From: Methanomassiliicoccaceae archaeon
Lineage (GTDB): Archaea; Thermoplasmatota; Thermoplasmata; Methanomassiliicoccales; Methanomassiliicoccaceae
NCBI GenBank assembly: GCA_040776945.1
Contig: JAXGZN010000002.1
Coordinates: 672,001 to 736,000, forward strand
Direction of reading: 5' to 3'
Length of the DNA: 64,000 nt
A program made the position numbers and the translations under genes. A model generated the notes under the pieces. That model worked only from the letters and a program-made list of their open reading frames with translations. It was not told the origin of the DNA and ran no database searches. Below are positions 9,546 to 30,525 of the stretch, in pieces; position 1 is the first letter of the stretch, and every line of letters starts with the position of its first letter.

Positions 9546-9894
9546 GGGGCGCGCATCGGGGCACGTCCAACGCTCAAAATCCCGAAGGAGTACTTAGAGC
9601 TGTCAGCCCGTCTTTCAATATCGGCGGCATCCATGCGGAAGATCCGCCTGAACGCGGCTGAGGGACATGCCTGCGGAGGACCGAGGGCTCCGCGGAAAAT
9701 AAAATTAGAGCAATCTTTATTAATAATAGGCTCAAGTAAATAGTGTTCGAACGGCGACGCCCCCTGATGAGCGGATGGAGCCTGGCGGGGGCATAGCGCT
9801 CTGGCAAAGTTTGAAGAAAGGCTCATTGGTAGTATTGCTTCGGAGAACTATCGAGCGCCCGGAAGAGAGAGAGGCATCGTTGCACAAGGACGGG

Positions 9895-10359
9895 ATGATA
9901 TTGGACCGCAGCTCCGAGGAGATCGCAGACCAAGGGAAGGCCAAGCCGAGGCAGCCGCTGAAGATACTCCTTGCGGAGGACAACCCCGGCGACGTTCAGC
10001 TGCTGATGGTCCTATTGGACATGTCCGGCCTGTCGTTCCATGTCAAGCACGTGACCGATGGGGAGAAGGCGCTGTCATATCTTCGCGGAGCGACCGATAC
10101 CGAGCTTCCGGACATTGTCCTTCTGGACCTGAGGATGCCGAGGATGGACGGCTTCGATTTTCTGAGAGAGCGGCTCAAGGACCCTCGGTTGTCCTCCATC
10201 CATACGGTGGTCCTCACAAGCTCCAACGCTCCCCGCGATCGCAGGAAGGCGATGGAACTGGGTGCTGACCTCTTCATGTTAAAGCCAGACCGGATGGACG
10301 AGGCCGAGGACCTTGTACCATGCCTTGAGCGCCTCATCCGAGAAAAGGAAGCGGCATAG
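9895..10359 (+). CDS. single-domain response regulator
   Basis: LLAEDN, DLRMP, LTSS, KP; start uncertain. Confidence 0.88.
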   Translation: MILDRSSEEIADQGKAKPRQPLKILLAEDNPGDVQLLMVLLDMSGLSFHVKHVTDGEKALSYLRGATDTELPDIVLLDLRMPRMDGFDFLRERLKDPRLSSIHTVVLTSSNAPRDRRKAMELGADLFMLKPDRMDEAEDLVPCLERLIREKEAA

Positions 10360-11596: not shown

Positions 11597-13567
11597 TCAT
11601 CCCTTCCTGCGCACCCACCTGATATACAGCGCCATGCTTCCCAGCAGCACTACCGCCGCCAGGCCCGCCATGACCATCACCGGCACACCCCCGCTCTCCC
11701 CGGTGCCGCTCCCTCCCTGAGCCCCGGGATCGTCAAGGTCTATGGTCTTGGTCAGGCTCCTCGACGTGCCGGCGGCATCGGTGACGGTCAGCGTGACCGT
11801 ATGGTTGCCGCCGACCGCGAAGGTGTGGTCGACCTTCGCCCCTGCCGCGGTCTGGCCGTCATCGAACTCCCAGTGGAAGCTCAACGTGCCGTTGCCTCCG
11901 TAGGAGGAGCTGGCGTCAAAGTGGGCGGTCGTCCCGCTCGCGGTGAAGGTGAACAGTCCCACCGGGGGCATGGACCGTCCCTCGCCCTCCAGAAGACTGG
12001 CTATGACCGATCCAGAGGTGGAGCCCAAATAAAGCATGCCGTCGGAGATGGATGGGGAGGCGCGGACGTTGGCCCCCGGCTCGATGGGCTCGGTCCACTC
12101 CACGTTGCCGTCATCGCTGATGGCGACCACCCGGCTGTTGGTCTCGTTGGTGACCAGATAGGTCATTCCGTTGACGGTCACCGGCGAGCCTCCGGGCGTC
12201 TCCGATCCGTAGGAGGCGGTCCACCGCACGCTGCCGTCGAGGGACAGCATGGAGAGGCCCTGTGAGGAGATGGACACCGCTCCTTGTTTCGAGACCGCCG
12301 CCTGGCCTGCGTTGCTCGCGGTGGTCGCCTTCCACACAATCGAACCGTCATAGGATATCGATGCCGCTCCGCCTCCCGACCCGGTGCCCGCGGGGTCCGA
12401 ATAGGTGACGATGAGGCGGTCGTTCATCGCCACCGGGGCGTTCAGGGCGCCCCCGACCTTAACGCTCCATTCGACCTTGCTTCCGTCCCCGGCCACGGCG
12501 TACAGCGAGCCATCGCCGCCCGGCACATACAGGGTCACGTCAAATAGCGCCGGCGTGGCGGACGCCGTGGTTCCGATGCTTCTGCTCCACGCCCTTGCTC
12601 CTTTCGCGGTCACCGCGGTTATCGTCCCGTCATCGGCGGTGACGATCAGCAGGTTCCGAAAGGTCAAGGGGGACGCAGAGATCCCGCCGCTGGTCACTGT
12701 ATAGGTCCACAGCTCGCTTCCCGTCTCCTGATCGAAGGCGTACAGCTTGCCGTCGTCCGAGGCCACGTACACAGTGTAGTCCCATAGTAGGGGTGAGGCG
12801 GTCTGGTGGCCTCTTCCCACCGGCGCGCTCCACAGGACCTCTCCCGAAGGGTCCAGGCAGAACAGCTTCGAGTCGGTGGTGTAGGACCCGGAGGAAGCTA
12901 TGCCGGAGGTGACCGCGAATATCCTCCCCCCTGAGGAAACGATAGGCGCGTCGACGGCCCCGTTGCCGAGGTCCTTCTGCCATTTTTGGACGATGCCCGA
13001 CGGTTCATAGCTCAGGTCGCTGCCGGTGTTGGCGAAATCGCCCCTCTCCGAGATCCACGGGTCCCGATACTCGGGCGTGGCCGCCGGAGGCCCGATGTAG
13101 GGGTCCCGGGCATATATGGCGGCGATTGCCTTGGTGGCGATGGGGTCGATCCCGTCCAGGAGGGTCGCCGAGTAGCGCCATTCCTTGGTATTGCTGTCCC
13201 AGACCCATAGCCGCCAGAAGTCGTAGGGCTGCTGCGGGTTGGAGAAATTATAGTTGCCTGCGTACCCGTCTATGCTCATGATCGTGTTCCCCCAGGGAGC
13301 TTCATAAGCATGGGTCTCGCTGAGCCCCAGGGTCCGGGTGGCGTTCTCGAACACGTGGAAGCCCGTCATTCCTTTCGTCACCGGCACGTCGACCCACTGT
13401 GCGCGGCCGTTCCCGAAATCGATGAGGAAGGCGCAGGCGTCAGCCTCTTGGGCCGCGGCTGCGCCGCTGTAGGCAGCAACCGAGATCAAGGCCGAGCATA
13501 TAAGGGCGGCCAGCAAGGAGCGGCCTGTCCCGGCCCTGCCCGTTCGGGACTCAAGGCTCCCGTCCAT
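11597..13567 (-). CDS. cell-surface protein: DUF4430-like N-domain, PQQ-type beta-propeller, PKD domain, C-terminal TM anchor
   Basis: Signal peptide; IDFGNG and SIDG..FWRLW; repeated SP...G..YA.D..G...W blades; FDASSS..WEFDDG..V.LTVTD (PKD). Confidence 0.82.
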   Translation of the reverse strand: MDGSLESRTGRAGTGRSLLAALICSALISVAAYSGAAAAQEADACAFLIDFGNGRAQWVDVPVTKGMTGFHVFENATRTLGLSETHAYEAPWGNTIMSIDGYAGNYNFSNPQQPYDFWRLWVWDSNTKEWRYSATLLDGIDPIATKAIAAIYARDPYIGPPAATPEYRDPWISERGDFANTGSDLSYEPSGIVQKWQKDLGNGAVDAPIVSSGGRIFAVTSGIASSGSYTTDSKLFCLDPSGEVLWSAPVGRGHQTASPLLWDYTVYVASDDGKLYAFDQETGSELWTYTVTSGGISASPLTFRNLLIVTADDGTITAVTAKGARAWSRSIGTTASATPALFDVTLYVPGGDGSLYAVAGDGSKVEWSVKVGGALNAPVAMNDRLIVTYSDPAGTGSGGGAASISYDGSIVWKATTASNAGQAAVSKQGAVSISSQGLSMLSLDGSVRWTASYGSETPGGSPVTVNGMTYLVTNETNSRVVAISDDGNVEWTEPIEPGANVRASPSISDGMLYLGSTSGSVIASLLEGEGRSMPPVGLFTFTASGTTAHFDASSSYGGNGTLSFHWEFDDGQTAAGAKVDHTFAVGGNHTVTLTVTDAAGTSRSLTKTIDLDDPGAQGGSGTGESGGVPVMVMAGLAAVVLLGSMALYIRWVRRKG

Positions 13568-13719
13568 GGTCGATGACTGACCTTAATGATATTTCAAGAT
13601 TCCCGGGGTTAGGACCGTTAAGTATTGATTCCTAGGTGAACTTCCTTCCTCATCATTGGAATCTCAATGGGGCCTTGTCCGGGCCCGGCGGGGCCTCCCT
13701 GCCCTGACAGGATTGCGTG

Positions 13720-13737
13720 ATTATCGTCATAGATAAT
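13720..13737. promoter_or_regulatory. palindrome ATTATC-N6-GATAAT in the divergent intergenic region
   Basis: attatc gtcata gataat; resembles the palindromes at 39238 and 39273. Confidence 0.4.
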
Positions 13738-13875
13738 GCCAGGGGCGTAGAACGCATGCTCTGACCGACCGGCGGTCCGCTGGCCAGCGTCACTGGCGCT
13801 CCATGCGGGGGCGAAGGCCTGAAATCGATTCCGATAATAACGCAAAAAAGGTTAATACCACTTGACTTCTCCAAG

Positions 13876-14799
13876 TTGAGATTTGCTTTGAGCAGACGAC
13901 CGCTCATTATAATGGTGGCCGCCACGGCATTGTTGTTGGGGTTGCTCATAGCCCCTGTCTCTGGCTGGGCCGGAGGGGGAGGGAACAGCAACTACCAGGC
14001 AGGCGATTGCAGTTGTCATGGAACGGTGAGCTCGGCCACGGTGACCATGTCAGCGTCCTCCAAGGTCCTCCAGCCCGGAGAGAGGGTCACCGTGACGGTG
14101 ACCGTTGCCGGCGGCGAGACCGTGAACAAGCCGCTAGGCGTCATGATAATTTCCAAACTGAGCGGGAGCAGGACCATGCCCACCGAGAACGGTTGGAAGA
14201 TCCTGTCCGATTCCGTCGGCACCGCCGTCAATTACAACGAGGTGCCCTCCTATAGCGGGAGCGCCACATTCACCTGGACCCTTCAGGCCCCTGCCAATCC
14301 CGGCGCATACACCTTGTACGCAAGGATGGAGAACAGCGTCAACGGGATAGGATACTATAAGGACTACAGCGCGGGGATCGCGTTTACGGTAAGGTCCGGG
14401 GACGGTTCCTCCCTGGTGGCCATCGAGTCGCCGGCGAACGGTTCGACCCTGACCGGGAACGTGACCGTGGGCGCCATGGTGGAGGGGAAGAACATCACCT
14501 CCACCCAGCTTCTGATAGACGGCAAGCTGGTCTCCACCGGCGACGGGAGCCCGTTAAGCTATTTGATCGATACGAACGATCTGACCGATGGGGCCCACAA
14601 GATACAGGTCATCGCGACCTCGAGCGATGGTGAGGTCATCACCAGGGAGTCCAACTTCACCGTGAACAATCACGGGGCGCTCATCTTGCCGGTCCAACAG
14701 TCCGATTGGATGCCCGCCGACATGGTCTTCCTCGCCCTGATAGGATGCATGTTGGTAGTGGGCACCCGCGGGCTCAGGAGCAGTAAGAAATGGCGTTGA
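13876..14799 (+). CDS. exported protein with N-terminal CSCH motif, Reeler-like and Ig-like domains, C-terminal TM anchor
   Basis: Signal peptide, GDCSCHG, FTWTLQAPANPG, IESPANGSTLTG...DGAHKI (Ig-like), C-terminal hydrophobic helix. Confidence 0.75.
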   Translation: MRFALSRRPLIIMVAATALLLGLLIAPVSGWAGGGGNSNYQAGDCSCHGTVSSATVTMSASSKVLQPGERVTVTVTVAGGETVNKPLGVMIISKLSGSRTMPTENGWKILSDSVGTAVNYNEVPSYSGSATFTWTLQAPANPGAYTLYARMENSVNGIGYYKDYSAGIAFTVRSGDGSSLVAIESPANGSTLTGNVTVGAMVEGKNITSTQLLIDGKLVSTGDGSPLSYLIDTNDLTDGAHKIQVIATSSDGEVITRESNFTVNNHGALILPVQQSDWMPADMVFLALIGCMLVVGTRGLRSSKKWR

Positions 14800-16013
14800 A
14801 GTTGCCAAAGACAAAGTTGCCCGCCGGGCTGCGCTTGCCGCCCCGCGGTAAAGGTATCGACATCACACATCTCAGAGCGCTTCCATCGAAGCTCCCCAAG
14901 GTCGTGCGGAGGAACGCGGAACGGTACATCGGGCTCGTCATCGGGTTCTTCCTGTTCGTGGCGCCGTTCACGGTGTTCACCTGGTTCGCCTACTCGCTGA
15001 CCGGCTCTTCGGGGAACGCTTCCATTCACTCCATCTGCTACCGCCTGCCCCTTGATTGGCTCATTGGAGGCTCGGCCGCCTCGGTCGGCCCCATCGCCGC
15101 CGCCTTCGTGATAGGCGCGCTGGCAGTTGCGCTGTTGTTCGGCCCGCTGTTCTGCGGCCGCCTGTGCCCGGTCGGCGCGATGAGCGAGCTGGTGAGCCGG
15201 ATCACCCCCCTTCCGTCAAGATACAGGATGCGGATAAGGGACACAAGGGTGACGGCAAGCCTCCGCTACGGCTTCCTGGCCGGTTTCATCCTAATGGGCC
15301 TGGCGGCCGGCGGACGGGTGGCAGAGTGCTCCTACGGGGTCGACCTCGGAAGGTACTGCTCCTCCTCCATCACGGAGTACATGTCACTGGGGCTGTTCGG
15401 CGGAGCGCTGCCGGCCAACTTCTGGAACACCGGCCTGCTGCTCACCCTCTTCGCCTGGCTGGTGCTCGGGGGCATCATGATGGTCGGAGGACGGGGCTGG
15501 TGCCTGTTCTTCTGCCCGCTGGGAGCGCTGTCCGGGCTGTCCCACGCGCTGGGCTCAAGGCTCGGCCTGTACCATGTCCAGTTCCACGAGGACAAGTGCC
15601 GGCGGTGCCGGCGGTGCGAGGTCAGCTGCCCGATGTGGGCCATCGGCCTCGACCGAAGGGTCGAGCACTCGCTGTGCATAAGCTGCGGGGAGTGCGTCCA
15701 TAACTGCTCGTTCAAGGCCTATCAGGGAGGCTTCGGCCGCACCGGGGTCAAGATCACCGGGGCCGTGAAGGACCTCCTTGGACGGATCAGGTCGGTCGGC
15801 ACCTTCGCCCTGGCCTCCTCCACCGCGCCGGTGGCGGCGGTCCTCACCGGGCCCTGCGCCTCGGTGGGCTGCGCGGCCTGCCCTCTCGGGGGCGCCTGCT
15901 CGCTCGCCATGCCCCTCCTCTTCGGAGGAATGATCGCCGCTAGGAGGTCCAGGAGGATCAAGGCGGCTCTCTCCTCGCTTCGCGGACGCCTTCGCCGGAA
16001 GAGGAAGGACTAA
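14790..16013 (+). CDS. membrane polyferredoxin (NapH/MauN-like)
   Basis: FCGRLCPVG and WCLFFCPLG CxxxCP motifs, CRRCRRCEVSCP, CISCGECVHNC, several TM helices; overlaps the upstream stop. Confidence 0.85.
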   Translation: MALKLPKTKLPAGLRLPPRGKGIDITHLRALPSKLPKVVRRNAERYIGLVIGFFLFVAPFTVFTWFAYSLTGSSGNASIHSICYRLPLDWLIGGSAASVGPIAAAFVIGALAVALLFGPLFCGRLCPVGAMSELVSRITPLPSRYRMRIRDTRVTASLRYGFLAGFILMGLAAGGRVAECSYGVDLGRYCSSSITEYMSLGLFGGALPANFWNTGLLLTLFAWLVLGGIMMVGGRGWCLFFCPLGALSGLSHALGSRLGLYHVQFHEDKCRRCRRCEVSCPMWAIGLDRRVEHSLCISCGECVHNCSFKAYQGGFGRTGVKITGAVKDLLGRIRSVGTFALASSTAPVAAVLTGPCASVGCAACPLGGACSLAMPLLFGGMIAARRSRRIKAALSSLRGRLRRKRKD

Positions 16014-16043
16014 TGAGGGGCGGCGCTCATTAAGTGGGACGTC

Positions 16044-17996
16044 ATGAGCCTGGGCGATATACTCCTGGTCCTGGCGGCCCTGTCCGCGCTGACGTGCATC
16101 ATAGCGGGCCTCATGGGACCTCGAGCCGCGGCGGGCCGGGCAGCGGCCTCGTCGCGCTTCGCCGCCCTGGCCGCCTTCGCATCGATCTCCGGCGCCCTTG
16201 TCCTGCTGGCCGCGGCCTTCGCCTCCTCCGACCTCAGCTACCGCTATGTATGGTCCCATTCATCCACAGGCCTGGACGCCTTCTATAAGCTGGTCGGCGT
16301 ATGGGCGGGGGGCGAGGGAGGATTGCTGCTGTGGGCTTGGCTGATGGCCCTGTTCCTGGCGGTCGAGGTGCTGGCTGAGAGGAGGCGGGAGGCCGGTCCA
16401 AAGTACGCCGCGGCGTTCCGGGTGGCGGCATCCAGCATCGTCCTTCTCTTCTCCCTTATCCTCATGGCCGCCGACCTGTTCGGCCCCACCAACAGCGCAG
16501 AGCTGCTTCTTCACCCTGAGGGCCTGGGAATGAACATCGCGCTGCAGACCGTGGAGATGGCCGTCCATCCGCCCCTGGTCTTTTCCGCCTACGCCGCCTG
16601 CCTGATGCTCTTCTCAGCATCCATGGGCAGGCTGGTGGCGGACGATGATGGCTGGAGGGATGCCGCGCTTCCCTGGGCCAAGGTCGCCGGAGCGCTCCTT
16701 CTCGCCGGTATCGCGGTCGGCGCGGTTTGGGCCTACTATGAGCTGGGGTGGGGAGGGTTCTGGGTCTGGGACCCGGTGGAGACCGCTTCGCTCTTCCCTT
16801 TCATCGCGGTCATCGCCTTCCTGCACGCGGACCGGTCCAGGGGCGCAAGGGAGGGGGCCCTGCAGCCTTTCTTAGGCACGCTTTCCTTCGTCTTCGTGCT
16901 CCTGGCCTCTTTCATCACCCGCACCGGGGGACTGTGGGGGTCCTCCGTCCACACCTATGGGAGCATGGTCAGCGGATCGCTGGAGGCTAGGCTCGTCACG
17001 GTGCTGACAGGCGACATGGGCGTGATGGGCCTGTTCGCGGTCATCATTGTGCTTTTCGCCATCTGCCTGGTCCTTTCCTACCGGACCATGCTTAGGGCGG
17101 GCGAGAGGGGGCGGGTGAGCGCCGGGGTCCTGGCTACCGTCGCCTCCCTGCTGATCTATGCGGCCCTCCTTCTCCTGCTGCTGATAAAGAACACCGGCCT
17201 GGACCAAGGGGCCAACTTCATCGAGATCACCGAGAAGACCACCCTGCTCTCCTTCCCCATGGCGCTCCTTCTGCTGTTCGGCCTGATAAGCGGCCCGCTG
17301 GGCCGACGGAACGCCGCGAGGGCATGCGCAGCGGTGGCCGCGGCCTCGGTCGCGCTGGCCGCGGCCGCCCTGATCCTCGGGACCTTTCCTTGGCTCGCAG
17401 CGCTCGCCGCACCACCCGCGGGGACGGTCATCGGCGCATCGGCGTATCGAATCGCCATGATCGACCGGGCGCCGCCCGCCAGGTGGCTGGGCGGGGCAGG
17501 CGGGCATCTCGTTCATGCCGGGATCGCCATCGTGCTGCTGAGCTTCATAATCTCCTCAACCATGCAGGCCCACCTCCCTGAGGACGATGGGAACATGTCC
17601 GTCGGCAGCGAGGCGAGGGTGGGCGGCCATACCATTATCCTTACCGGACTGAGCGTGAGACCTTGGACCTCTTCCACGGGGGAGGCGGGGGAGGAGAGGG
17701 CCGCCACCTTCGTGGTGAGGTCCGGCGGCCCCGAGATCACCGTGACCGTTTCCAACCTATACAAGGCGGAAGGTTCAGGTTTCACGCTGGTGCGCTCGGG
17801 GACGGCCATAATCAACGGCGCCGTCGAGGACCTCTATCTTGATTATGGGTGGGTGAACGGCGATACCGCGATGGTCCAAGCGAGGGTCGTTCCCTTGGTC
17901 AGCGAGGTATGGGCCGGGTTCGTCCTGGCGACCGCAGGCATGGTCGCCACGTTGTTCGGACGGCCTCCTCGGGAACGTCCGGACGATTTGTTCTGA
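16044..17996 (+). CDS. ccmF: cytochrome c maturation haem lyase CcmF
   Basis: WAYYELGWGGFWVWDPVE (WWD domain), VHPP, ITRTG...SVH, HAG. Confidence 0.92.
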   Translation: MSLGDILLVLAALSALTCIIAGLMGPRAAAGRAAASSRFAALAAFASISGALVLLAAAFASSDLSYRYVWSHSSTGLDAFYKLVGVWAGGEGGLLLWAWLMALFLAVEVLAERRREAGPKYAAAFRVAASSIVLLFSLILMAADLFGPTNSAELLLHPEGLGMNIALQTVEMAVHPPLVFSAYAACLMLFSASMGRLVADDDGWRDAALPWAKVAGALLLAGIAVGAVWAYYELGWGGFWVWDPVETASLFPFIAVIAFLHADRSRGAREGALQPFLGTLSFVFVLLASFITRTGGLWGSSVHTYGSMVSGSLEARLVTVLTGDMGVMGLFAVIIVLFAICLVLSYRTMLRAGERGRVSAGVLATVASLLIYAALLLLLLIKNTGLDQGANFIEITEKTTLLSFPMALLLLFGLISGPLGRRNAARACAAVAAASVALAAAALILGTFPWLAALAAPPAGTVIGASAYRIAMIDRAPPARWLGGAGGHLVHAGIAIVLLSFIISSTMQAHLPEDDGNMSVGSEARVGGHTIILTGLSVRPWTSSTGEAGEERAATFVVRSGGPEITVTVSNLYKAEGSGFTLVRSGTAIINGAVEDLYLDYGWVNGDTAMVQARVVPLVSEVWAGFVLATAGMVATLFGRPPRERPDDLF

Positions 17997-18149
17997 ACCT
18001 TGCGGCCTTCGAGAGGGATATCGAGACCAGAATATGAGAGGGGTCACCTGCGTAGGATGAGCTTCGAGGCATGCTCCGGCCACGGTCAATATGGGCCCTT
18101 TGTAAAGTACGATCGATAAGAAAAAGGGAGGAAGGGTGAGCCTGGTGGC

Positions 18150-18989
18150 TCAGTTCATTTCCTTGGCCATCTTCTTGGTAAGCCCGTACGCTACCGGCAC
18201 CAGGAGGACTGCCAGCGCTATCGCGAACGCCCAGGACACGTTGGCAACTATCGAGGTGACGTTCGGGAAGGTGGCGAATATCGCGCCCGCGCCGATGATC
18301 AGGAAGATCGAGTACAGAACGAACTTTGCGTACCCGGCGACAGAGCGGAACTCGGCGTGGTCCTCGACGATGGACCGGACAAGGGTATCGGTCAAGATTA
18401 TGCCGACGCCGATGATCACGAAGCCGAGAATCAGCGGATAGATCGTTCCTCCGGACAGCAGCATGGTGTCGAGGGCCAGCAGGATGATGAAGGCGATCAG
18501 GCCGATGAACAGGAGGTTCTTGATCATATCGGCGATCTCTACCTTCTCGGGCGGGAACATCGGCCGGATCATCTTGCCGATGAAGTTAGCCAGGAAGTCC
18601 ACCAGAACCACGCCCAGTATGAGTATCAACAGACCGCCGAGAAGCCTCGGGAGGTAGTCGGCCACGACCGTGAGGTATGAGCCCAGCGTGCCGCCAATGC
18701 TCAGGATCTCGATGGCCCAGACGATGGCCAGGACGATGATGAAGGCCTTTACGAACATTCCGATGACGTTCGATAGGTCCAAACCGGCCGCTCTGAACGA
18801 TTTGCCGGTGCTGCTCTGATCGAACGCCCTCTCCATGCCGATCTTCTCGACCAGAATGTTAACGGCCTTCCCGACAATAGTGCCGACCAGCCAGCCGATG
18901 GCTATCACGATCACGGCGGCCAATATCGTCGGGATCGCGAGTATGATGTCCTCCACCATTAACTCCAATGTCTCTATGATGTCAACCAA
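18150..18989 (-). CDS. CmpX/TM-helix-repeat membrane protein (MscS-associated family)
   Basis: IPTILAAVIV..GW and YLPRLLGGLLIL repeats. Confidence 0.78.
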   Translation of the reverse strand: MVDIIETLELMVEDIILAIPTILAAVIVIAIGWLVGTIVGKAVNILVEKIGMERAFDQSSTGKSFRAAGLDLSNVIGMFVKAFIIVLAIVWAIEILSIGGTLGSYLTVVADYLPRLLGGLLILILGVVLVDFLANFIGKMIRPMFPPEKVEIADMIKNLLFIGLIAFIILLALDTMLLSGGTIYPLILGFVIIGVGIILTDTLVRSIVEDHAEFRSVAGYAKFVLYSIFLIIGAGAIFATFPNVTSIVANVSWAFAIALAVLLVPVAYGLTKKMAKEMN

Positions 18990-19607
18990 CTCTAATCACT
19001 TCCTTTGCATGGGGAGCCGAATCTTCATATATGCATTATTTTTATTTTTTTCGTTATATGTTGATTCTTATGCTTCAAAATATAAATATCTGGATATCCA
19101 TTCTTGCGAGTTAAAAAATTTGTCCTTATAATGAACATAATGCCTGCCGTCCTTCCTTGAGCAATCCAAACGGCCCTTGGGACGCTTTTTTCGGCAGCGG
19201 TCCGCCGGTCCTCGTAGCCGGCATGCTCAAGGCCGCGGCGGTCCGGTAACAAATTCTGATGGCCGGAGACGGAGGCGGGCATATCGCCGGTCCGGACGGC
19301 ACCGGGCCTCTTTGCTCGATGCTTGAACCATGTTGTCATTCCATTGCAGTGTTCGCCGGGCGCATCGGGCCTGGGCGTCGTTGCTCCATTCGGGGCGATG
19401 TCCCTCCTGATCGACATCACCTTTGTTGGGCGGCCCCCATCTTCTAACGCCATAGTTCCTTCCGCAATCGACCAGCGAGGTTATTTCATGACAGGGTCAC
19501 GTCGCCTCCAACAGACGTCCGACGATGAGTCCTGGTCAACGTTATGTGATGGGACAACTAAGGTTCGATGCCGTAAGGTTTTACGTGAAGGGTCATGCCG
19601 GCGCCGA

Positions 19608-20204
19608 TCACGCGCTGGTGATGAGGCCGAGCTTCCTGCGCAGGATCTCGGCGGTCTCAGGCACAAGGTCCGTTGACCAGAAGATGCGCTCGTAGACGTC
19701 CTCGGGAGTCCAGGCCTGGACATCCTTGGCCGAGAGGTGGGCCACGGCCAGGAGCCTCTCCAACACTTTCTCATCGCTCGTGGCGGGAAGAGCGTTGATG
19801 TTGACGGGGCCGAAGGTGGCGAAGCTGGAGGCCAGACGCAGGCCGTTCATCAGCGCCTGCCTTTTCTCTCGTCCGAAGAGCTCGTAGGCCAGCTTCTCCG
19901 CCAGGGCGGACAGGGACTCCTTGATCTCCGGCGGGATGCCTTGCAGCCCGCCGATCTCCCTCTTTAGGTCGTTCGAGCGTGCCTTGGTCAGAAGCCGGCA
20001 GTCGGTTGAGCGGATCACCAGCCGCTCCAGGACCGAGTCGTACATGTCCAGGGGGTCCCTGTCCCTGAGCTGCGGAACGTTGGTGTAGCCGACCGCATAG
20101 ACCAACAAGGCCGCGGACGGCGTGATGCCCGGCACTTTAATGATGTCCATCAATGGCATAGAGCGCTCACCTGGCTCGAATAATATTGAGGAGGTAGATA
20201 TCAA
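19608..20204 (-). CDS. hypothetical protein with DUF4332/HhH-like N-terminus
   Basis: DIIKVPGI...LL..VGYTNVPQL..RDP. Confidence 0.55.
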   Translation of the reverse strand: MISTSSILFEPGERSMPLMDIIKVPGITPSAALLVYAVGYTNVPQLRDRDPLDMYDSVLERLVIRSTDCRLLTKARSNDLKREIGGLQGIPPEIKESLSALAEKLAYELFGREKRQALMNGLRLASSFATFGPVNINALPATSDEKVLERLLAVAHLSAKDVQAWTPEDVYERIFWSTDLVPETAEILRRKLGLITSA

Positions 20205-20333
20205 TTGCTATGGGGACCTTTGGTCCCGGGGGTCGGTACAGCGTGTTCTGGCAGGGAGGAAGGGAACGGGACGAAGCGGGTCTTTCATCCCGAAGTAGGT
20301 CTTTACCGGCCGCTGTTCCATATCGGCCGCAGC

Positions 20334-20933
20334 TCAACCGCCATTGTGTTTCAGCATCTCCTGTACCAGGGCCATGATGTCAGAACAGGTGGCATTCGCA
20401 TCGATATTGCCGCGAACCTCTCCGCTTGGAAAGCCCTCGGTTATGACGTTGATGTATAGATTTCCCGCGTCCAGCTCGCCAATGAACTTGGCCATTGAGG
20501 CCCCGGCCATCGGTCCGGTGAGGGTACGTTCGGTAATGGAGCCCAGAGCGATAATGCCTTCATCATCCTCGCCATGTCTGGTATGCATTACAAGGGAGAG
20601 ATATGCGACCGCTTCACCGGTCTCCCTTCCATCCCGGGCCCAATTGATGCTCACCTGGGTTACGTCGTCGTCAAGCTCAGAGACGTGGACCATGTAGCAT
20701 ATCTCGTTCAGACCGTCATTGAGCCAAAAGACCGCGACCCCAGTGCCTTCAGTATAAACTGGGTGAGGTCTCACTTGGTCTCCGAACAGCGGCACTATTA
20801 CGGCTGGGTTCCAGCCGTGCGTCCCATCTTTTTCGGTCTGAGCATTCGTGGCAGTGAATATCACAGCCACGGCCGCGACGACAGCAACGAGCAAGCCAAA
20901 TGCGATCATTACCTTGCCAAGTTCCATTCTCAT
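20334..20933 (-). CDS. exported CHRD-domain protein
   Basis: Signal peptide; GNLYINVIT..FPSGEVRG. Confidence 0.82.
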   Translation of the reverse strand: MRMELGKVMIAFGLLVAVVAAVAVIFTATNAQTEKDGTHGWNPAVIVPLFGDQVRPHPVYTEGTGVAVFWLNDGLNEICYMVHVSELDDDVTQVSINWARDGRETGEAVAYLSLVMHTRHGEDDEGIIALGSITERTLTGPMAGASMAKFIGELDAGNLYINVITEGFPSGEVRGNIDANATCSDIMALVQEMLKHNGG

Positions 20934-21059
20934 CCCTCGTCCCTCGACCTCTGACCTTCAGGATTAATAATTAGCTCCTCAGCTAAGGCGAGGGTTAACT
21001 GTCAAGTCGCTGAGATAACGAAAATCGGCGAGTTATCGAACAGCGGGGACAACCGCCCT

Positions 21060-21496
21060 TGGCCGAGCCTATCGGGCCTGCCCGCGCAACGATGATGAGC
21101 GTCCGAGCATGAGCGACCTATTATGCAATGGTTAGACGTCCATGTGTATGGACGTGACTTTGTTCAGAGTCGGTGGCGTTCGGCCGTCCCGTCCAGATCT
21201 AAAACAGAAAGGAATCGGCCATCGAGGTACTTCAGAGATGTGCCGCCCTTGGTCCGAACATTAACTCATGCGTTCCTATGACATGATCTGCGCCGCGGCG
21301 GGAGCCATATGATGTATCGGGCCGGCGTCCAGCTCGAAAAGATAGCCTGAATATTCGGGCATTCGGACAGTAGGACGACCGCCCATTACATTGGGCTCGA
21401 TATAAAGGATATGAGCGCTCGTATGGAGATTCAGTGTATGTGGGAATTTCCGCGTTTCACTGAAAATAGTAAGAAATGAGACAGGTCGGGAAATTG
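21060..21496 (+). pseudogene. degraded tyrosine integrase remnant
   Basis: From 21282: HDLRRGGSHMMYRAGVQLEKIA*IFGHSDSRTTAHYIGLD (HxLRR, GH and catalytic Tyr region); upstream QWLDVHVYGR fragment; left edge approximate. Confidence 0.8.
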
Positions 21497-21513
21497 GTGG
21501 ACAGAGCTGGATT
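21497..21513. repeat. att copy of tRNA-Ala 3' end (left junction)
   Basis: gtggacagagcTggatt vs gtggacagagcGggatt at 31493-31509, 16/17 identical, direct orientation. Confidence 0.85.
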
Positions 21514-21810
21514 ACTTTCCAAGAAACTAACTGGCTGGAGCCCGTTTTGAACCACGTTCGGTTCACCACCCCCGATCGAGGGTTGATGAGAAAGTAAATC
21601 AAACCTTTTCCTCGCCTTTTTTATAAACCGCCTATTCAGCACTAGTATGCCCACTCCTCAATACTCCCCTTATTTTCCTTATCCTCTTAATTATTATCAA
21701 CACTCTCACCTCATTGAATTAATGACCTCAAAGGTAGAGCAGAGCAAAGGGGATAGCTTAGTACTAATAGGTCGATCAGGACCGATCGCCTCGTGCGTGG
21801 TTCCATATGT

Positions 21811-22725
21811 TCATACCGGGCCTGCAGGGCTAAAGTTGGCAAACTTGCCAATCCTGAGCCTTTCTGATCGGTAGACCTCCCTTATGCCCATCCTGTGAAG
21901 TCTCTCACGATCCGGTACCTCGTCTCTGAGTTCCCTCTGTGCAAGGACGCTTCTCACAGAATCGGTCGAGAGCATTCCTTCCCAAATGGGCCAGGAGAAG
22001 AAATCCTTCTTGTTCATTCTTGTGAAACCTGTTGTCTCTAGCTGACCATCCCTTACAACGCTAGGGAATAGTTGAAGTCCCCGATATGCCAACAGGTTGG
22101 CAGCCCAGACCGTCTTGGGCGGCGAACCGCTTGGATTTTCCCACATGAGCGCATATCTCCGGTCCTCGACGGGGTCCCAGCGCATAGAGTGCTTAGGATC
22201 GTTGTATGTCCATCTATCAAAGAGGCATTGATGGATCTTCTTCTGATCTACGCATCCGATGAGGTCCCTGACGGTCTTAAGAAAGTATTGATGGCCTGAC
22301 CCCTTGATGAAACAGAAAGGGGTGACATATATTTTTCCGCTTTCCTCATCCATACATATGGTACAGCCGAAATTCGTCATCAGATCGACAGAGGTGCGAT
22401 CGGTCGAGCGAGCTTCATCCACTACCTTTATGGCATGTGCCTTGAACACATCCTGACCAACAACGACGTTATCTCCCAGTTCGAGCTCTGTGGTCTTTTT
22501 CTTTAAGCTTTGGTAGATACGGTCCGACAACTGCTCATCTGTAATGGGATTTTCCACTCTCAAAACAGGGTGCCACGTATCTTCCTCTGACCATGACATT
22601 CGTGCACGTATGGAATGATCGGAGGATATGACCGCAAGAACCCCCAATGCGCTTAGATAGCCCAGTGGGTTGATGCCGTCAAGCCCTCTCAGTACTTTGT
22701 CTGATCCAGACGGATCGGAGCTCAT
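21811..22725 (-). CDS. type I-G (I-U) CRISPR-associated protein, Cas3-extension/Cas8g-like
   Basis: GLDGINPLGYLSALG, RWDPVEDRRYAL, ANLLA..GL.LFP, FSWPIW; overlaps the cas3 stop. Confidence 0.75.
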   Translation of the reverse strand: MSSDPSGSDKVLRGLDGINPLGYLSALGVLAVISSDHSIRARMSWSEEDTWHPVLRVENPITDEQLSDRIYQSLKKKTTELELGDNVVVGQDVFKAHAIKVVDEARSTDRTSVDLMTNFGCTICMDEESGKIYVTPFCFIKGSGHQYFLKTVRDLIGCVDQKKIHQCLFDRWTYNDPKHSMRWDPVEDRRYALMWENPSGSPPKTVWAANLLAYRGLQLFPSVVRDGQLETTGFTRMNKKDFFSWPIWEGMLSTDSVRSVLAQRELRDEVPDRERLHRMGIREVYRSERLRIGKFANFSPAGPV

Positions 22726-23942
22726 TCTAGGCCCTCCTCATCTGCCGACTCATATATTAGATCGTATTCACTTGAGCGATGGTCAGCCAACCTGAGGATA
22801 GCTTCGAGGTAGGCTTCCCCCCACCAGCCAAACCGCCTTATGCCTTCCCAGAATCGATCGCCAACACCGCTGCCCACTAGATCCATTCCAGTATCGCTGG
22901 AGTGCCTTAGAATCGAACCTCCGGTTTCGAGGGTGACCTCGCGAGGGCTTTGGTCCCAGACCACAGGGGCGAATGGTCGGCAACGACCGTGGTGGCTTGA
23001 GATCAGGTGGAGAATCAGGTCGCGTTCAACACCGAGCTCTATCTGTTCCGCCAAACGCGCCGAAAGCAGCTCGTGCCTTCCGCCCTTGGGGTAGCCTGCC
23101 CTGATTCGTGCCTGTTCGTATTGGGTGAACGTGGATGCTAACCAATCCGATTTCGCCAATAGATCCGTACCTGCGGCTGCGGCCCTTATATCTCCGCCGC
23201 GAAGGAGGGCCTGAAATCTTATGTCGGCTTTGCCTGTGTCATGCAAAGCTGAGGCCTTTTTCATTGGAACAACAAACGAGCTTGGCAGGGTTTTTATGCA
23301 AAACTCGCTGGCGATTCGTTCAACACTATCCGAGTGAGAGCTAAGAGTCACAGGTGCGGCTGGTCCATCTCTCGATCGCACTCTTCCTTTCTCGCCCCAA
23401 ATGATCAATCCTTGTCCCTGAGGATATGGAACTACGTTGGTGCGTTTTAGACTGGCCACGCCGTTCACGATCTCCCCCATTCGCCCGGGCAAGCCACTAG
23501 CGTTCGTCAACTCGCTCAATGCGTCCCTTAGATCATCTACGAAGTCGTTATCATATGATCTCTCGGCAAGATTGGGATCATTGATCAGATCTAGGATCCT
23601 ATCTTTCACCCTCGATGCTGGCCAATTTGAAATCAATGACGGATGTAGTCTCAGCAGGACTCGTTTCCCCGTTACGAATGCAGCCTCATCTCCACGGTCA
23701 ATGGCGGCCGAGTTGGGAGGAACGTCTGGGATGTGTCCGAGCGACTCTCAACCTCCCATGGAAGAGGGCAGAACAACGATTTCCCCCGGCTGTACCTCAC
23801 TAGGATTGTCTACGACCCTGCTCTCAGCACCGCCCCTCCACACGAGCATGTGCATCGGACACATCGGCTCTCCCCCCTCATTAGAGGTAAACGCCCCCTC
23901 TACGTCCGTCAGGTCCGAATCGTGGTTGACCGTTCTCACCAA
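22722..23942 (-). pseudogene. cas3: truncated type I-G Cas3 (C-terminal HD nuclease part only)
   Basis: HSDSV, HDTGKAD, RHELLS, HHGRCRP, LADH; in-frame TGA at 23748-23750 joins two track ORFs; no helicase motifs remain. Confidence 0.8.
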
Positions 23943-24137
23943 CGGACATATTGAGAGACGAGGACTGGGAGATTATCGGCGGAAGAACGATGAGATGTTC
24001 AAGGGTGGTGCTGGCCCGTAGGAACTGGTCGCGACCGGCGCGACACCTATTAATACGAATTAAATATTCTTGTTACTAATGCACGGAAAATGCTGGGTTC
24101 GGTCCTCCGGAGGAGTCCATGCATCAGAGGCTCTTAT

Positions 24138-24995
24138 ATGCTGGACGTGAAAAACATCGAGTTCTCGTACAATGAGGAGAGGGTCCTGGAGGATGTATCC
24201 TTTCAGGCCGTAGAAAATGAGGTCATATCTATCATGGGACCGAACGGCGTGGGCAAGACCACCCTTCTCAAATGCTTGTGCAACTTCCATCGTCCCCAGA
24301 ATGGGAAGATAACCATAGACGGTAAGGATGTGTCGTCCATATCGAGCCGGGAGCTGGCCAAGCATATAGGATATGTTCCGCAGCGGGCGAACACCACCAG
24401 GTCGACGGTGTTCGATTCGGTCTTGATCGGACGACGACCTTACATAGAGATATCAGCCACCAAGAGGGACCTCGAGGTCGCATGGAACGCGCTGGACTCG
24501 CTTGGCCTGGGTAGCCTGGCCTTGCGATACGTCGACGAGATCAGCGGCGGCGAGCTTCAGAAGGTGCATATCGCCCGGGCCATGGTGCAGGAACCCCGAA
24601 TACTGGTGCTGGACGAACCAACCAACAACCTTGACATCGCCAATCAGCATGTCACGTTGCACAATATAATTGATGCCGTGCGTTCCAGGGGGATGTGCAC
24701 GATAATGACCATGCACGACATCAACTTGGCCGTGCATTATTCGGACCGGCTCATGTTCATGAAGGGAGGGCGCATCTTCGCCTTCGGGGGACCGGATATT
24801 ATCGACGAGAGGTTGATCAAGGAGGTATACGGGATAGATGCGGACGTGATCATGCATAAGGGCGTCCCCTTCGTCATCCCCCATACCGCCAAGAACGGTC
24901 ATCCGAGATACACGCATAACCACGTTCATGCGGTCGATCACGACCCCTCAGACCACGTGCATGAGGCTCTTGGAATAGCCCAGGCCAAGGACTGA
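24138..24995 (+). CDS. FepC/BtuD-type ABC ATPase with His-rich tail
   Basis: GPNGVGKT, ISGGE, LDEPT, MHD; tail HTAKNGHPRYTHNHVHAVDHDPSDHVH. Confidence 0.92.
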   Translation: MLDVKNIEFSYNEERVLEDVSFQAVENEVISIMGPNGVGKTTLLKCLCNFHRPQNGKITIDGKDVSSISSRELAKHIGYVPQRANTTRSTVFDSVLIGRRPYIEISATKRDLEVAWNALDSLGLGSLALRYVDEISGGELQKVHIARAMVQEPRILVLDEPTNNLDIANQHVTLHNIIDAVRSRGMCTIMTMHDINLAVHYSDRLMFMKGGRIFAFGGPDIIDERLIKEVYGIDADVIMHKGVPFVIPHTAKNGHPRYTHNHVHAVDHDPSDHVHEALGIAQAKD

Positions 24996-24996
24996 G

Positions 24997-25788
24997 CTAC
25001 ACGTCCCATACCAGTAGTCTCATCCTGTTCAGGCACCTGAACCTGAACTCCCCACCCTCGACCATCGGTTCCAGCACCTTTCGTACGGCCGGTTCGACCT
25101 CCATGCCCTTCCCATAAGGCCTGAAGTCCCGGACAATCTCCGAGACAGCCGTTTCCAACGGAATGGAACGCTCCACCGGGGTGCTGAACTCGGTGACCTC
25201 CGGCCTCCTGCCGATCGATCTGAGTTTCCTCTCCACCAGGTCGGACCCCCTTTCGGCGAAGGAGTAATTCTTGCCCATCTCCCTCCAGACCTCGGCGTGC
25301 AGGTCATCCCAGCCGTTGACGATCCACATGATGTGTGCGCAATGGTGGTCGGTCCAAGCTTCCATCCTTTTTAGCCCTTCGACGGACCCTGTCCCGGGAC
25401 ACAGGGAGGACACAACCGCCGAGCTCCTCCTCTCCGGCTCGTACTCCATGACGTCCGCCTTGACCAATGTGACATTGCTATATCCCATATCTCGCACGGA
25501 GCTCGAAAGGCGGTCCAGCATGACCTGGGAGGTGTCTAGGCCCACCACTGACCTGACCAAGGGTGCCATTGGGAGGGTATACGTTCCAGGACCGCAACCG
25601 AGTTCCAGTACGGTCGCATCGCAGTCTAGGACCCCGGTTCGGTGCAGATGCCCGACGATCTCGTTGACCATGGACCCCTGCTGCGTTCCCGAATACCAGG
25701 AGGCGATGTCGTCCCAGAAGTGGAGCGCCCTCTGCCTGTCGAACCCCTCCCCGACGAACGGGTGGGACCCGGACCGTTGACAGTTCAT
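24997..25788 (-). CDS. class I SAM-dependent methyltransferase
   Basis: VLELGCGPG, GLDTSQVML. Confidence 0.88.
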   Translation of the reverse strand: MNCQRSGSHPFVGEGFDRQRALHFWDDIASWYSGTQQGSMVNEIVGHLHRTGVLDCDATVLELGCGPGTYTLPMAPLVRSVVGLDTSQVMLDRLSSSVRDMGYSNVTLVKADVMEYEPERRSSAVVSSLCPGTGSVEGLKRMEAWTDHHCAHIMWIVNGWDDLHAEVWREMGKNYSFAERGSDLVERKLRSIGRRPEVTEFSTPVERSIPLETAVSEIVRDFRPYGKGMEVEPAVRKVLEPMVEGGEFRFRCLNRMRLLVWDV

Positions 25789-26876
25789 CGCAGTACCTTC
25801 CTCTTCTTCCTGGTCCCCCTTATCAGAAGGTAAATGAACAGCGGTCCGCCTAGGAACGAGGTTATTATGCCCACCGGCAGCGTATAGACCAGCAGGTTCT
25901 GTCCTACGCAGTCCGCGATGAGCAGGATGATGGCTCCCAGCAGCATCGAGCCCGGGAGCACATACTTATGATCGTTTCCCAGGAACATCCTGACGATGTG
26001 CGGACCGAGCAAACCTATGAAGGCTATTATTCCCATGAACGAGACCACGATAGATGTCATTAGTGCTGAGAGGAACAACGTCTCCATCCTAAGCCAATCG
26101 ACCTTGATACCCAGGGACATGGCCACGTCGTCCCCGGCGTCCAAGGCGTTGAAGTCCCATCTGCGCCACAGGAAGTAGGCGATGACCGCCATGGAGATGA
26201 TGGCGATCAAGGTGAGCTCACCCCAGGACGCCTTTCCAAGGGAGCCGAACTGCCAGAAGACTATGGCCGAAAGGGCGTAATCGTTGTAGATGTACTGAAG
26301 CATGCTTATGCCGGCCGAGAAGATGGAGCTGAGGGCCACACCCGCCAGGACCATGGTTTCCGCGCTGACCCTGGTCACCTTGACCAGGAGGATGATTATC
26401 ACCGTGGCGATCAGGGCCCATGTGAACGCGCTGGCCGAGACCAGGTACGGATTGTTGATGAGTATGGAGGCATGGCTTTGCCCGACCACCAGTCCTCCTC
26501 CCAGTGCTAGAATGCCTAGGGAAGCGCCGAAGGCCGCGGCGTTCGAGATGCCCAGAGTGTAAGGTGAGGCGATTGGGTTCCTGAGGACGCATTGCATCAC
26601 CGTACCCGCAACGCCCAGGGCAAACCCGGCGAACAGGCCGGAGACGATCCGGGGCAGATACAGGTTCCAGAACAGTATCACATCGACCTTGGAATTCTGT
26701 GGGTTGTCCTTATCGAAAATGACCTGGACTATCTCCTCGAACGAAAGGGACCCCAGGTCGATCTTGAGCACGGCTATCGTCGAAATCAAGAGAAGTAGCG
26801 CCAAGGCCACCAGGAATAGGTTCTTCCGCCTTGAATGGGCTAGATACCCTTCTATTCCTCCATTTCTACTGTTCAT
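25785..26876 (-). CDS. FecCD-family ABC permease
   Basis: LPRI..G, RNPIASPYTLGIS, G.IAFIGL, LPVGIITS. Confidence 0.92.
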   Translation of the reverse strand: MNSRNGGIEGYLAHSRRKNLFLVALALLLLISTIAVLKIDLGSLSFEEIVQVIFDKDNPQNSKVDVILFWNLYLPRIVSGLFAGFALGVAGTVMQCVLRNPIASPYTLGISNAAAFGASLGILALGGGLVVGQSHASILINNPYLVSASAFTWALIATVIIILLVKVTRVSAETMVLAGVALSSIFSAGISMLQYIYNDYALSAIVFWQFGSLGKASWGELTLIAIISMAVIAYFLWRRWDFNALDAGDDVAMSLGIKVDWLRMETLFLSALMTSIVVSFMGIIAFIGLLGPHIVRMFLGNDHKYVLPGSMLLGAIILLIADCVGQNLLVYTLPVGIITSFLGGPLFIYLLIRGTRKKRKVLR

Positions 26877-26949
26877 CGACCGCCACCATGCCTGACCTGA
26901 GACGCTAGTATGATAAAAATATTGAGCTGGCCTGGGCCAGCGAAGTGGT

Positions 26950-30455: not shown

Positions 30456-30525
30456 GCTCCCCGTCCCTCTTTGCAGATGAGATAGTGCTATCTAACCGCA
30501 GTGTCCTAACACGAGATGACTGAGA

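Follow-up and report, generated by a model that had tools for sequence, protein, structure and literature searches.

What use would an archaeon from a supposedly cytochrome-free lineage have for a cytochrome c lyase? The question is raised by three adjacent genes, called A, B and C in the following, in the genome of a Methanomassiliicoccaceae archaeon (assembly GCA_040776945.1, contig JAXGZN010000002.1, positions 672,001 to 736,000 of the forward strand; the whole of this stretch, 64,000 nucleotides long, is referred to as the window). They encode an exported protein with a Cys-Ser-Cys-His (C-S-C-H) motif, a membrane polyferredoxin and a haem lyase of the CcmF type. As the first-pass annotation of this DNA had proposed, an undescribed surface redox module is the best-supported reading of the locus, and we hold it to be on balance probable, though far from assured, that the three proteins form a minimal cytochrome c system, which works without CcmE and on scavenged haem. 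The proposal in its full extent, to which we give somewhat less than an even chance, is that the genus makes one c-type cytochrome with CcmF alone, scavenged haem and ferredoxin-fed B as the reductant, and that A is the first of a new class of beta-sandwich cytochromes c with CX1-5CH sites (including the first natural CXCH), widespread in Thermoplasmatota.

The three co-oriented genes are arranged as follows:

13888-14799, plus strand: gene A, choice-of-anchor V family protein with two immunoglobulin (Ig)-like domains, exported and anchored at its C-terminus (match to NF041895, start-codon comparison)
14790-16013, plus strand: gene B, NapH/MauN-like membrane polyferredoxin (Fer4_5, Fer4)
16044-17996, plus strand: gene C, CcmF/NrfE-type haem lyase, the sole PF01578 gene of the genome (PF01578, TIGR00353)

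A and B overlap by 10 nucleotides (nt) and 30 nt separate B from C; the tight linkage and common orientation noted in the first pass are borne out by the coordinates of the open reading frames (ORFs), just as its description of the products (an exported and anchored CxCH protein, a NapH-like protein and a full-length CcmF with the WWD motif) is by domain and motif matches. In the ORF listing, A is given as 13876..14799 (307 amino acids), B as 14790..16013 (407 amino acids) and C as 16044..17996 (650 amino acids). Comparison of orthologous loci revealed that the codon equivalent to 13876 is ATT, TCG or a TGA stop in the orthologues of A, and that the codon right before S-R-R-P is kept as a start (TTG or ATG) across them. 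We moved the start of A from 13876 to TTG 13888 because the orthologues keep only the latter as a start codon; TTG 13888 most likely is the true start, yielding a 303-amino-acid form, and the C-S-C-H motif is unchanged by this revision.

In protein A, the following features can be distinguished:

13888-13965, plus strand: signal-peptide-like N-terminus, basic S-R-R-P followed by a hydrophobic stretch to about V-S-G (hydropathy 2.69, residues 6-24 of the 303-amino-acid form)
13963-14400, plus strand: predicted N-terminal beta-sandwich domain bearing the motif (AF2 model, mean pLDDT 94.6, motif block 91)
14008-14019, plus strand: C-S-C-H motif, C45 S46 C47 H48 in the 307-amino-acid numbering (DNA 14005-14019 gat tgc agt tgt cat, i.e. 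D-C-S-C-H)
14416-14610, plus strand: second Ig-like domain, Big_7 (PF17957, E 1.5e-11, residues 181-245)
14710-14766, plus strand: putative C-terminal membrane anchor and basic tail (hydropathy 1.92; helix 280-304 in the AF2 model)

The signal-like segment, with its basic N-terminus and hydrophobic stretch, is conserved among the orthologues, and a cleavage site would be expected at its end. Export by the Tat route was rejected, the R-R pair being K-K in some relatives. A orthologues in Methanomassiliicoccus loci are 55-77% identical, and D-C-S-C-H is invariant throughout the aligned Methanomassiliicoccus-type sequences. The only named domain covering the N-terminal part, NF041895 (NCBIfam choice-of-anchor V), matches residues 22-158 with 52.5 bits (cut-off 42); the name of this family, like that of the MXAN_6652 family NF041894, says nothing on function, and no paper on the domain was found in a literature search. 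A Rieske protein binds its cluster by two Cys and two His, with a box I C-x-H about 15-20 residues upstream of the C-x-C-H of box II; reading the motif of A as box II was rejected, as the stretch from the signal segment to the motif is devoid of Cys and His, and the spacing of the cysteines varies from 1 to 5 in the family.

A profile of the N-terminal domain retrieved 169 cluster representatives at E<=1e-3, and in a protein atlas the clusters nearest to A fall in Thermoplasmatota; as far as these searches reach, A belongs to a large, uncharacterised Thermoplasmatota family, and the single named cluster member across ten CxxCH-type representatives is a Thermoplasmata archaeon. The motif could be typed in 140 proteins with a matched N-terminus (column counts refer to 164 domain rows). 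Most commonly it is CX3CH (70 proteins), followed by CX1CH (20, of which 8 are outside the Methanomassiliicoccus type), CX2CH (17), CX4CH (7) and CX5CH (5). Among the 125 occupied rows, 124 retain the motif His, a Lys being the sole exception, and no tabulated column of the family is more uniform; the Cys adjacent to the His is kept in 111 of 125. Haem c sites would be expected to behave in this way, with the C-H fixed, the other Cys at a varying distance and neither Cys strictly required. Homologous sites in relatives bear CX2CH, CX3CH and CX4CH, and by sequence CxCH is one spacing variant within a CX1-5CH family. The first-pass annotation had asked whether CxCH is conserved and co-occurs with ccmF: the Cys-His pair is the most conserved element of the A family and CcmF is linked to it, and the spacing of the cysteines varies. 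Of 401 sampled Thermoplasmatota genomes, 94 contain the A domain and 195 contain PF01578, the latter being found in 93 of the 94 genomes with the A domain versus 102 of the 307 without it (lists compared by eye); the lone exception, G173, is 78% complete.

The surroundings of the relatives are rich in cytochrome genes. In a clade 39-44% identical to A, all ten metagenome loci with downstream DNA carry, next after the A homologue, a gene for a protein with four transmembrane segments and 227-236 amino acids (dnTM in the following), and upstream, on the opposite strand, lies a multihaem ORF (seven loci; 3 to 9 CxxCH per available contig) or ccmA together with ccmC (one locus), i.e. a cytochrome or ccm neighbour in eight of the eight metagenome loci with a readable upstream ORF. 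The same arrangement (multihaem cytochrome, ccmA, ccmC and dnTM next to the A homologue) is present in locus L008, whose genome also encodes CcmE, a 757-amino-acid CcmF and two AhbA/B matches. The CcmC-like protein of this locus (L008:2203-3363, minus strand) has 386 amino acids, PF01578 covers only residues 186-320 of it, and about 180 residues precede. In L061 (genome G173, C1:2873000-2892999) the homologue lies among ORFs with 13, 4, 8 and 13 CxxCH; no PF01578 was found in G173, which consists of one contig and is, as mentioned, incomplete, and the maturation genes may be unassembled or another system may be used. A reduced situation is seen in L009 (G419, a Thermoplasmata metagenome-assembled genome, MAG): here a CX3CH member is divergent from a 650-amino-acid CcmF, which is 39% identical to C and the sole PF01578 gene of that genome, and family searches of the genome, the completeness of which is not known, found neither CcmE nor AhbA/B.

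The dnTM proteins themselves are polytopic (185-236 amino acids, about four hydrophobic segments). In most lineages of Thermoplasmatota their genes lie directly 3' of A-family genes and often overlap or adjoin these (L008:7928-8632, L009:7940-8584, L056:8518-9096 on the minus strand, L057:10985-11545, L063:10281-10877, L064:10911-11561, L065:10394-10951 and L162:1422-2102 on the minus strand). They have no Pfam match above noise, and H8, N96, K97, R115 and E157 are among the ten columns invariant in seven aligned sequences. In the genome studied here (G000), the place of dnTM is taken by B.

The most divergent species of the genus (L162, G023:C48:3000-13500) has two A-family genes back to back: a paralogue of 416 amino acids with a canonical C-N-S-C-H, followed by dnTM, and the orthologue of 663 amino acids, which has C-D-C-H and additional Ig domains and precedes a 293-amino-acid B and the only CcmF of the genome. 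The CxxCH paralogue of L162, like the L061 homologue, also passes the cut-off of NF041895, and several archaeal members of the A family stay below it or have no match. A lyase dedicated to CxCH, as originally suggested, is not what these loci point to: the only CcmF of L162 adjoins both the CxCH and the C-N-S-C-H gene, and the orphan CcmF of L009 adjoins a CX3CH gene.

Protein C bears the marks of a complete CcmF. It contains about 14 hydrophobic segments, scores 87.1 bits against PF01578 (cut-off 29.9), aligns with positions 1-575 of the 578 of TIGR00353 (CcmF/NrfE) over residues 51-640, and is aligned by proteobacterial CcmF over residues 1-648 with 25-38% identity; the best 80 loci from the CcmF alignment are all bacterial and mostly proteobacterial. 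The curated NCBIfam cut-offs are not reached (159.4 versus 569 for TIGR00353, 158.1 versus 927 for TIGR03145). Its candidate functional residues are:

16566-16568, plus strand: H175, outer-face His before the WWD domain (invariant in 7/7 homologues; aligned with a His of PDB 6ZMQ)
16749-16781, plus strand: WWD motif, W236-E246 (invariant in 7/7; aligned with the motif of 6ZMQ)
16824-16826, plus strand: H261, transmembrane, presumed b-haem ligand (invariant in 7/7; aligned with 6ZMQ)
16950-16952, plus strand: H303, outer-face His after the WWD domain (invariant in 7/7; aligned with 6ZMQ)
17514-17516, plus strand: H491, second transmembrane His, presumed b-haem ligand (invariant in 7/7)

These four are the only His residues invariant in all seven homologues, and three of them align with His of 6ZMQ; their roles as haem ligands we take from work on E. 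coli CcmF. Apart from the curated score and the absent partners, all sequence criteria class C as a CcmF.

Within the genus, the three genes behave as one conserved unit, in line with the first-pass suggestion of a linked module: they are adjacent in every genus genome bearing them, were lost together once, and are bridged by single RNA contigs. More precisely, A, B and C are adjacent in six of six named Methanomassiliicoccus or Methanomassiliicoccaceae loci (the L005 contig ends inside C) and in two of three such metagenome loci (in the third, the contig breaks off after A). The same 10 of the 11 genus genomes contain each of them, and G021 (93% complete) has none of the three; C occurs in none of 13 genomes of five other genera of the family. 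Pairwise ratios of nonsynonymous to synonymous substitution (dN/dS) are 0.20-0.32 for A, 0.23-0.31 for B and 0.26-0.32 for C, with dS of 0.46-1.17 across species; all three genes are under purifying selection.

Metatranscriptome contigs from four runs of three studies, with run labels naming digesters and sludge, cover A, B and part of C and are identical to the window save for a single G>T in one contig. They start at 13891-13897 in all four runs, and two of the runs include single contigs that reach from A through B into the 5' part of C (13894-16263 and 13897-16245), although contigs of this kind cannot establish one single transcript; over the 3' half of C the cover is patchy or missing. 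No RNA contig lies over the intergenic bins 13561-13747 and 17862-18048, though the flanking genes are covered, and RNA is therefore favoured over contaminating DNA as their origin. A possible promoter is placed just upstream:

13852-13857, plus strand: TATA-like box ttaata, read from the sequence, 31-36 nt 5' of TTG 13888

About 30 nt around it are conserved in the close orthologous loci L002, L003, L148 and L149, and we regard it as a putative promoter element of the operon. These data also bear on the idea that A, B and C are nothing but a functionless leftover of an ancestral cytochrome system. Such an origin would agree with the partners of the L008 type (ccmA/ccmC, multihaem cytochrome, dnTM, CcmE, AhbA/B) being present in relatives and, as far as they were searched for here (CcmC, CcmE, AhbA/B, dnTM, cytochrome), not found, and with the loss of all three genes in one species; a decaying remnant is, however, hardly to be reconciled with dN/dS of 0.20-0.32 for all three genes, with catalytic residues intact in all seven homologues and frames intact in ten genomes, and with RNA contigs from three studies, so that we consider it very improbable.

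If C is a lyase, the question arises what it could act on and which of its usual partners are at hand. The genome has 2.17 Mb in two contigs and is 99.84% complete; it contains McrA, and named orthologues of A and B come from Methanomassiliicoccus MAGs, by which it is assigned to Methanomassiliicoccus, and the taxonomy check called for in the first pass is thereby settled. In the searches for protein families, in each of which the control genomes behaved as expected, PF01578 matched one protein, C itself, and no CcmC was found (CcmA and CcmB were not searched for); CcmE (PF03100) was detected in none of the 11 genus genomes, the same search detecting it in Methanosarcina acetivorans; and no DsbD/CcdA was found in the genome (CcmH was not searched for). 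By tblastn, the genome has no homologues of dnTM, the multihaem cytochrome or CcmC. One PF01578 gene per genome was likewise counted in the six operon-carrying genomes checked (G000, G018, G023, G019, G020 and G016).

As to substrates, none of 12083 frames of at least 80 amino acids contains two or more CxxCH, and only nine of 9434 ORFs have a CX1-5CH further along the chain from an N-terminal hydrophobic segment, A being the only one convincing as an exported candidate. In what was scanned, there is no other candidate c-type cytochrome and no CcmC, CcmE or CcdA; the first-pass annotation had noted that no ccmABCE genes are in the window. A would then be the sole substrate of the sole lyase in Methanomassiliicoccus. 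One further ORF may be mentioned, which lies outside the window (C1:251391-251744, minus strand) and has a predicted product of 117 amino acids; this begins with a signal-like segment, and its mature part, rich in His, Gly and Cys, contains C-x4-C-H. The ORF may encode a second substrate or a metal-binding peptide, or may be spurious.

In the tables of PMC8351635, CcmCF is scored in 0 of 12 Methanomassiliicoccales genomes (Table 4), KatG and cytochrome bd in none of the 12 and VhoC/HdrE in only one (Table 3), and HemBCD in 9 of 12 (Table 2). Our literature search found no other paper linking Methanomassiliicoccales with CcmF and none describing this operon. According to the legend of Figure 1 in PMC4429474, M. 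luminyensis is double-membraned; A would then face an intermembrane space.

Between A and the lyase lies B, a protein with features of electron-transferring membrane proteins:

15153-15170, plus strand: first C-x3-C-P, C122-P127 (invariant in 7/7; Fer4_5)
15501-15518, plus strand: second C-x3-C-P, C238-P243 (invariant in 7/7)
15597-15707, plus strand: two 4Fe-4S motifs, C270..C280-P281 and C296..C306 (Fer4; 8/8 Cys invariant)
15825-15941, plus strand: C-terminal hydrophobic four-Cys segment, C356 C361 C364 C370, of presumed functional role (invariant in seven aligned sequences)

Pfam places Fer4_5 in two stretches (E 8.7e-13) and Fer4 in two stretches, and B is 57-76% identical across six orthologues. 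The four-Cys segment was seen only in Methanomassiliicoccus orthologues, and the 293-amino-acid B of L162 ends before it. NapH-like relatives of about 290 amino acids cover only some 70% of B with 41-51% identity, the named ones including Methanolinea, Candidatus Methanosuratus, Verstraetearchaeota and Nitrososphaerota. Predicting a complex of B (with two 4Fe-4S clusters) and residues 30-307 of A gave a score of 0.01 against a mark of 0.32, which is evidence neither way.

From these elements the following mechanism may be put together. A would be exported by Sec and held at the outer face of the cytoplasmic membrane by its C-terminal helix, its C-S-C-H serving to bind haem c, through thioethers to C45, C47 or both and through H48 as axial ligand. 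C, a CcmF-type lyase with a b-haem of its own, would hold the haem to be attached in its WWD domain and ligate it to A. Because the b-haem ligands of C are preserved and genes for haem synthesis were not found, the haem would have to be acquired from outside and would presumably reach the lyase from the outer face, with no relay through CcmE; no CcmC or CcmE being found, it would therefore come to the WWD domain directly. B would pass cytoplasmic electrons across the membrane through two 4Fe-4S clusters, and could maintain both haem iron and cysteines in the reduced state for ligation, or act as electron donor or acceptor of holo-A, or both. The electrons might come from a cytoplasmic ferredoxin in place of quinol and thiol-reducing proteins; Methanomassiliicoccus is not known to possess quinones. 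On the simplest evolutionary account, an ancestral Thermoplasmata cluster of ccm genes, multihaem cytochrome, A and dnTM would have been reduced in Methanomassiliicoccus to A and CcmF and joined to a NapH-like protein.

A number of observations weigh against a cytochrome c system of this kind. The first concern haem itself: AhbA/B were found in none of the 11 genus genomes and no ferrochelatase was found in the genome (haem importers were not searched for), which leaves the supply of haem unexplained. System I CcmF is described in PMC3601427 as receiving haem from holo-CcmE, and our literature search found no precedent for a CcmE-free CcmF. Others concern the site: altered cysteine spacing leads to aberrant products in E. 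coli System I, again as described in PMC3601427, and the literature search, judged by titles and abstracts, turned up nothing on CXCH as a naturally occurring motif for haem c. Within the family, 5 of the 140 typed proteins have a single C-H, 11 keep the first Cys only (C-x-x-H) and 5 show no such pattern; no sixth haem ligand is conserved family-wide, and Met58, considered for this role, was rejected, Met standing at profile position 29 in 58 of 135 rows. Pfam finds no cytochrome family in A. Finally, 83 of the 94 A-domain genomes belong to two families, which turns the co-occurrence with PF01578 into about eight family-level observations, and the libraries behind the RNA contigs may contain DNA. 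TIGR04054 and TIGR04055 (NirJ1/2), tried as markers for AhbC/D, gave only generic radical-SAM matches and were discarded, the Methanosarcina control staying under the cut-off too, so that they decide nothing.

The missing haem synthesis markers leave room for two other roles of the lyase. A might bind haem covalently by means of C and the module might serve a haem auxotroph to capture, store or detoxify haem from the environment at its cell surface, without any electron transfer. Besides the lack of synthesis markers in the genus, no other candidate haem c protein was found, the tables of PMC8351635 report neither KatG nor cytochrome bd, and in digesters and sludge, to go by the run labels, haem should be available. 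Covalently trapped haem, however, cannot be passed on, and the polyferredoxin gene translationally coupled to A, together with relatives standing beside nine-haem cytochromes, points to electron transfer; we judge this role improbable. The other possibility is that the CcmF-like lyase attaches a self-made tetrapyrrole other than haem to the contracted motif. Methanogens do make other tetrapyrroles, for example F430 and corrinoids. HemBCD in 9 of 12 Methanomassiliicoccales (PMC8351635, Table 2), with the haem synthesis markers absent, would suit such a substrate, yet C keeps the four haem-ligand His and the WWD motif, and relatives of A sit among ordinary CxxCH multihaem cytochromes. Thioether formation by CcmF moreover needs vinyl groups, which sirohaem, F430 and corrinoids lack. 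Nothing that we found favours another tetrapyrrole, which the first-pass annotation had left as an alternative to haem, and its chance of being the ligand seems to us very small.

The main rival to haem is copper or another metal. On this account A would carry no haem: its Cys/His motif would coordinate copper or some other metal, or would serve as a redox-active thiol pair; A and B together would be a CcoG-like metal reductase or would handle metal as a pair, and CcmF would have another role or an unrecognised substrate. The predicted structure is of interest in this regard. In the AF2 model, the N-terminal domain is a generic beta-sandwich; its top Z in VIA is 10.0, with neither cytochrome f nor copper proteins standing out, and fold searches with the whole-A model gave only tandem Ig or fibronectin type III (FnIII) matches. 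A sequence search of the PDB with the A profile found no relative, only four matches with E~0.1 to interleukin receptor. The best Foldseek matches of the domain include the cupredoxin domain of AmoB (E 1.5e-5, TM-score 0.49) and YcnI in apo and copper-bound form (E 6.3e-5 to 3e-4, TM-score 0.46-0.50), which speaks for copper. The layout of A also recalls YcnI with YcnJ and CopC with CopD, in which an exported sandwich is paired with a polytopic membrane partner: A is an exported sandwich with a C-terminal anchor and has a polytopic neighbour (dnTM in most lineages). CcoG, a relative of NapH, is a cupric reductase, and the lack of a conserved sixth haem ligand and of a Pfam cytochrome match would be expected of a metal site.

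On the other hand, these copper-protein matches have TM-scores <0.5 with root-mean-square deviations (rmsd) of 4-9 Å, and no copper protein, YcnI included, is among the 50 best matches (Z at least 8.2) of a second look with VIA. In YcnI the copper ligand is the mature N-terminal His itself, unlike the conserved His of A, which lies about 18 residues past the predicted cleavage site. Either Cys is lost in different clades and the His kept, which fits a thioether better than a Cys2His metal site. A metal site would further leave unexplained both the conserved CcmF as a constant neighbour in genomes without another candidate substrate and the relatives adjoining multihaem cytochromes and ccm genes. 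We consider copper or another metal unlikely, though deserving of being kept in mind more than the alternatives above.

For haem, a structural comparison may be drawn with cytochrome f, a c-type cytochrome with a beta-sandwich, a haem site near the mature N-terminus and a C-terminal anchor. The design of A is similar, an exported sandwich with a C-terminal membrane anchor and a Cys-His site in its first ~25 residues. VIA aligned two cytochrome f chains with the N-terminal domain at Z 8.9 (120 aligned residues, rmsd 3.1) and Z 8.4 (124 aligned), the alignments beginning at model residues 11 and 6, before the motif, where few other rows begin so early. However, Z of 8.4-8.9 ties with dozens of generic Ig-like sandwiches (top Z 10.0), no sequence similarity between cytochrome f and A was found, and homology is not claimed. 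As modelled, the fold of the N-terminal domain decides nothing between haem and copper.

Some neighbours of the operon should be mentioned as well. The gene next upstream is divergent and might be an accessory:

11597-13567, minus strand: exported PQQ-like beta-propeller and PKD protein (Pfam PQQ_2 1.8e-38, PKD_4 5.4e-18)

It adjoins A in L002-L007 and L148-L150 and not in L162, the most divergent species; its membership of the module is uncertain. Further upstream lie a hybrid sensor kinase with REC-GAF-PAS-HATPase domains (3170-5176, minus strand) and a response-regulator receiver protein (9775-10359, plus strand). On the other side, a gene for a mechanosensitive-channel-like membrane protein (18150-18989, minus strand) converges on C; it has the top RNA contig depth in all four runs, 34-70 versus 2-19 over the operon, depth being a rough guide. 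An exported CHRD-domain protein (PF07452, E 2.3e-15) is encoded at 20334-20933 on the minus strand. The GC content is 0.53-0.57 in 18001-32000 and 38001-42000 compared with 0.62-0.66 around the operon, and these low-GC stretches may be islands or a different gene class.

Should the reading as a cytochrome c system prove true, Methanomassiliicoccales would not be cytochrome-free, CcmF would not be limited to working downstream of CcmABCDE, haem c sites would not need at least two residues between their cysteines, and a haem auxotroph would have a use for a cytochrome c lyase. At the same time a large family of hypothetical surface proteins, present in 94 of 401 sampled Thermoplasmatota genomes, would receive a function.

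Among known systems, System I is close to the operon in its lyase. Like the CcmF of E. coli and of Thermus thermophilus (PDB 6ZMQ), C is full-length, with about 14 hydrophobic segments, PF01578, the WWD motif and four His; it differs in that no CcmC, CcmE, CcdA or haem synthesis markers were found here and in being encoded with a polyferredoxin. NrfE(FG) is a dedicated CcmF paralogue for the CXXCK site of NrfA and works on top of a complete CcmA-E system. The likeness consists in a CcmF-family lyase encoded beside a protein with an unusual site, and TIGR03145 aligns with C over its full length (E 3.7e-46), whereas C is without a complete Ccm system, no NrfF/NrfG is seen in the operon, and in one species the lyase adjoins a CxxCH paralogue. 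As for B, it shares with NapH, MauN, NosR and CcoG two C-x3-C-P, two 4Fe-4S motifs and four membrane segments, yet it stays far below the cut-offs of the NapH/MauN models (52.2 versus 213 for TIGR02163 and 48.7 versus 234 for NF007013, only the C-terminal third aligning), no NapG/NapC partner is seen in the operon, and about 50 extra N-terminal residues, the four-Cys C-terminal segment and the coupling to CcmF set it apart from the NapH family.

In the way C is proposed to work, that is in handling haem without CcmE, it is rather CcsBA of System II that comes to mind, described as a single WWD membrane protein binding outer-face haem and ligating it without CcmE (PMC10663686, PMC6299221). By architecture and profile, however, C is a CcmF, the CcsB model TIGR03144 matching only residues 217-306 (35.6 bits), and CcsBA exports haem of the cell's own making, while markers of haem synthesis were not found here. 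The closest counterpart among Archaea is CcmABCEF of Methanosarcina acetivorans, described as an archaeal variant of System I (PMC9084895); neither Thermoplasmata nor Methanomassiliicoccales is mentioned by name in that paper or in its preprint. Relatives of our locus in other Thermoplasmata carry ccmA, ccmC, CcmE, CcmF and AhbA/B, and of the ccm genes searched for, Methanomassiliicoccus keeps only CcmF. Set against these systems, the operon would most fittingly be described as an orphan System I in reduced form, of which the substrate family is new and the site unusual.

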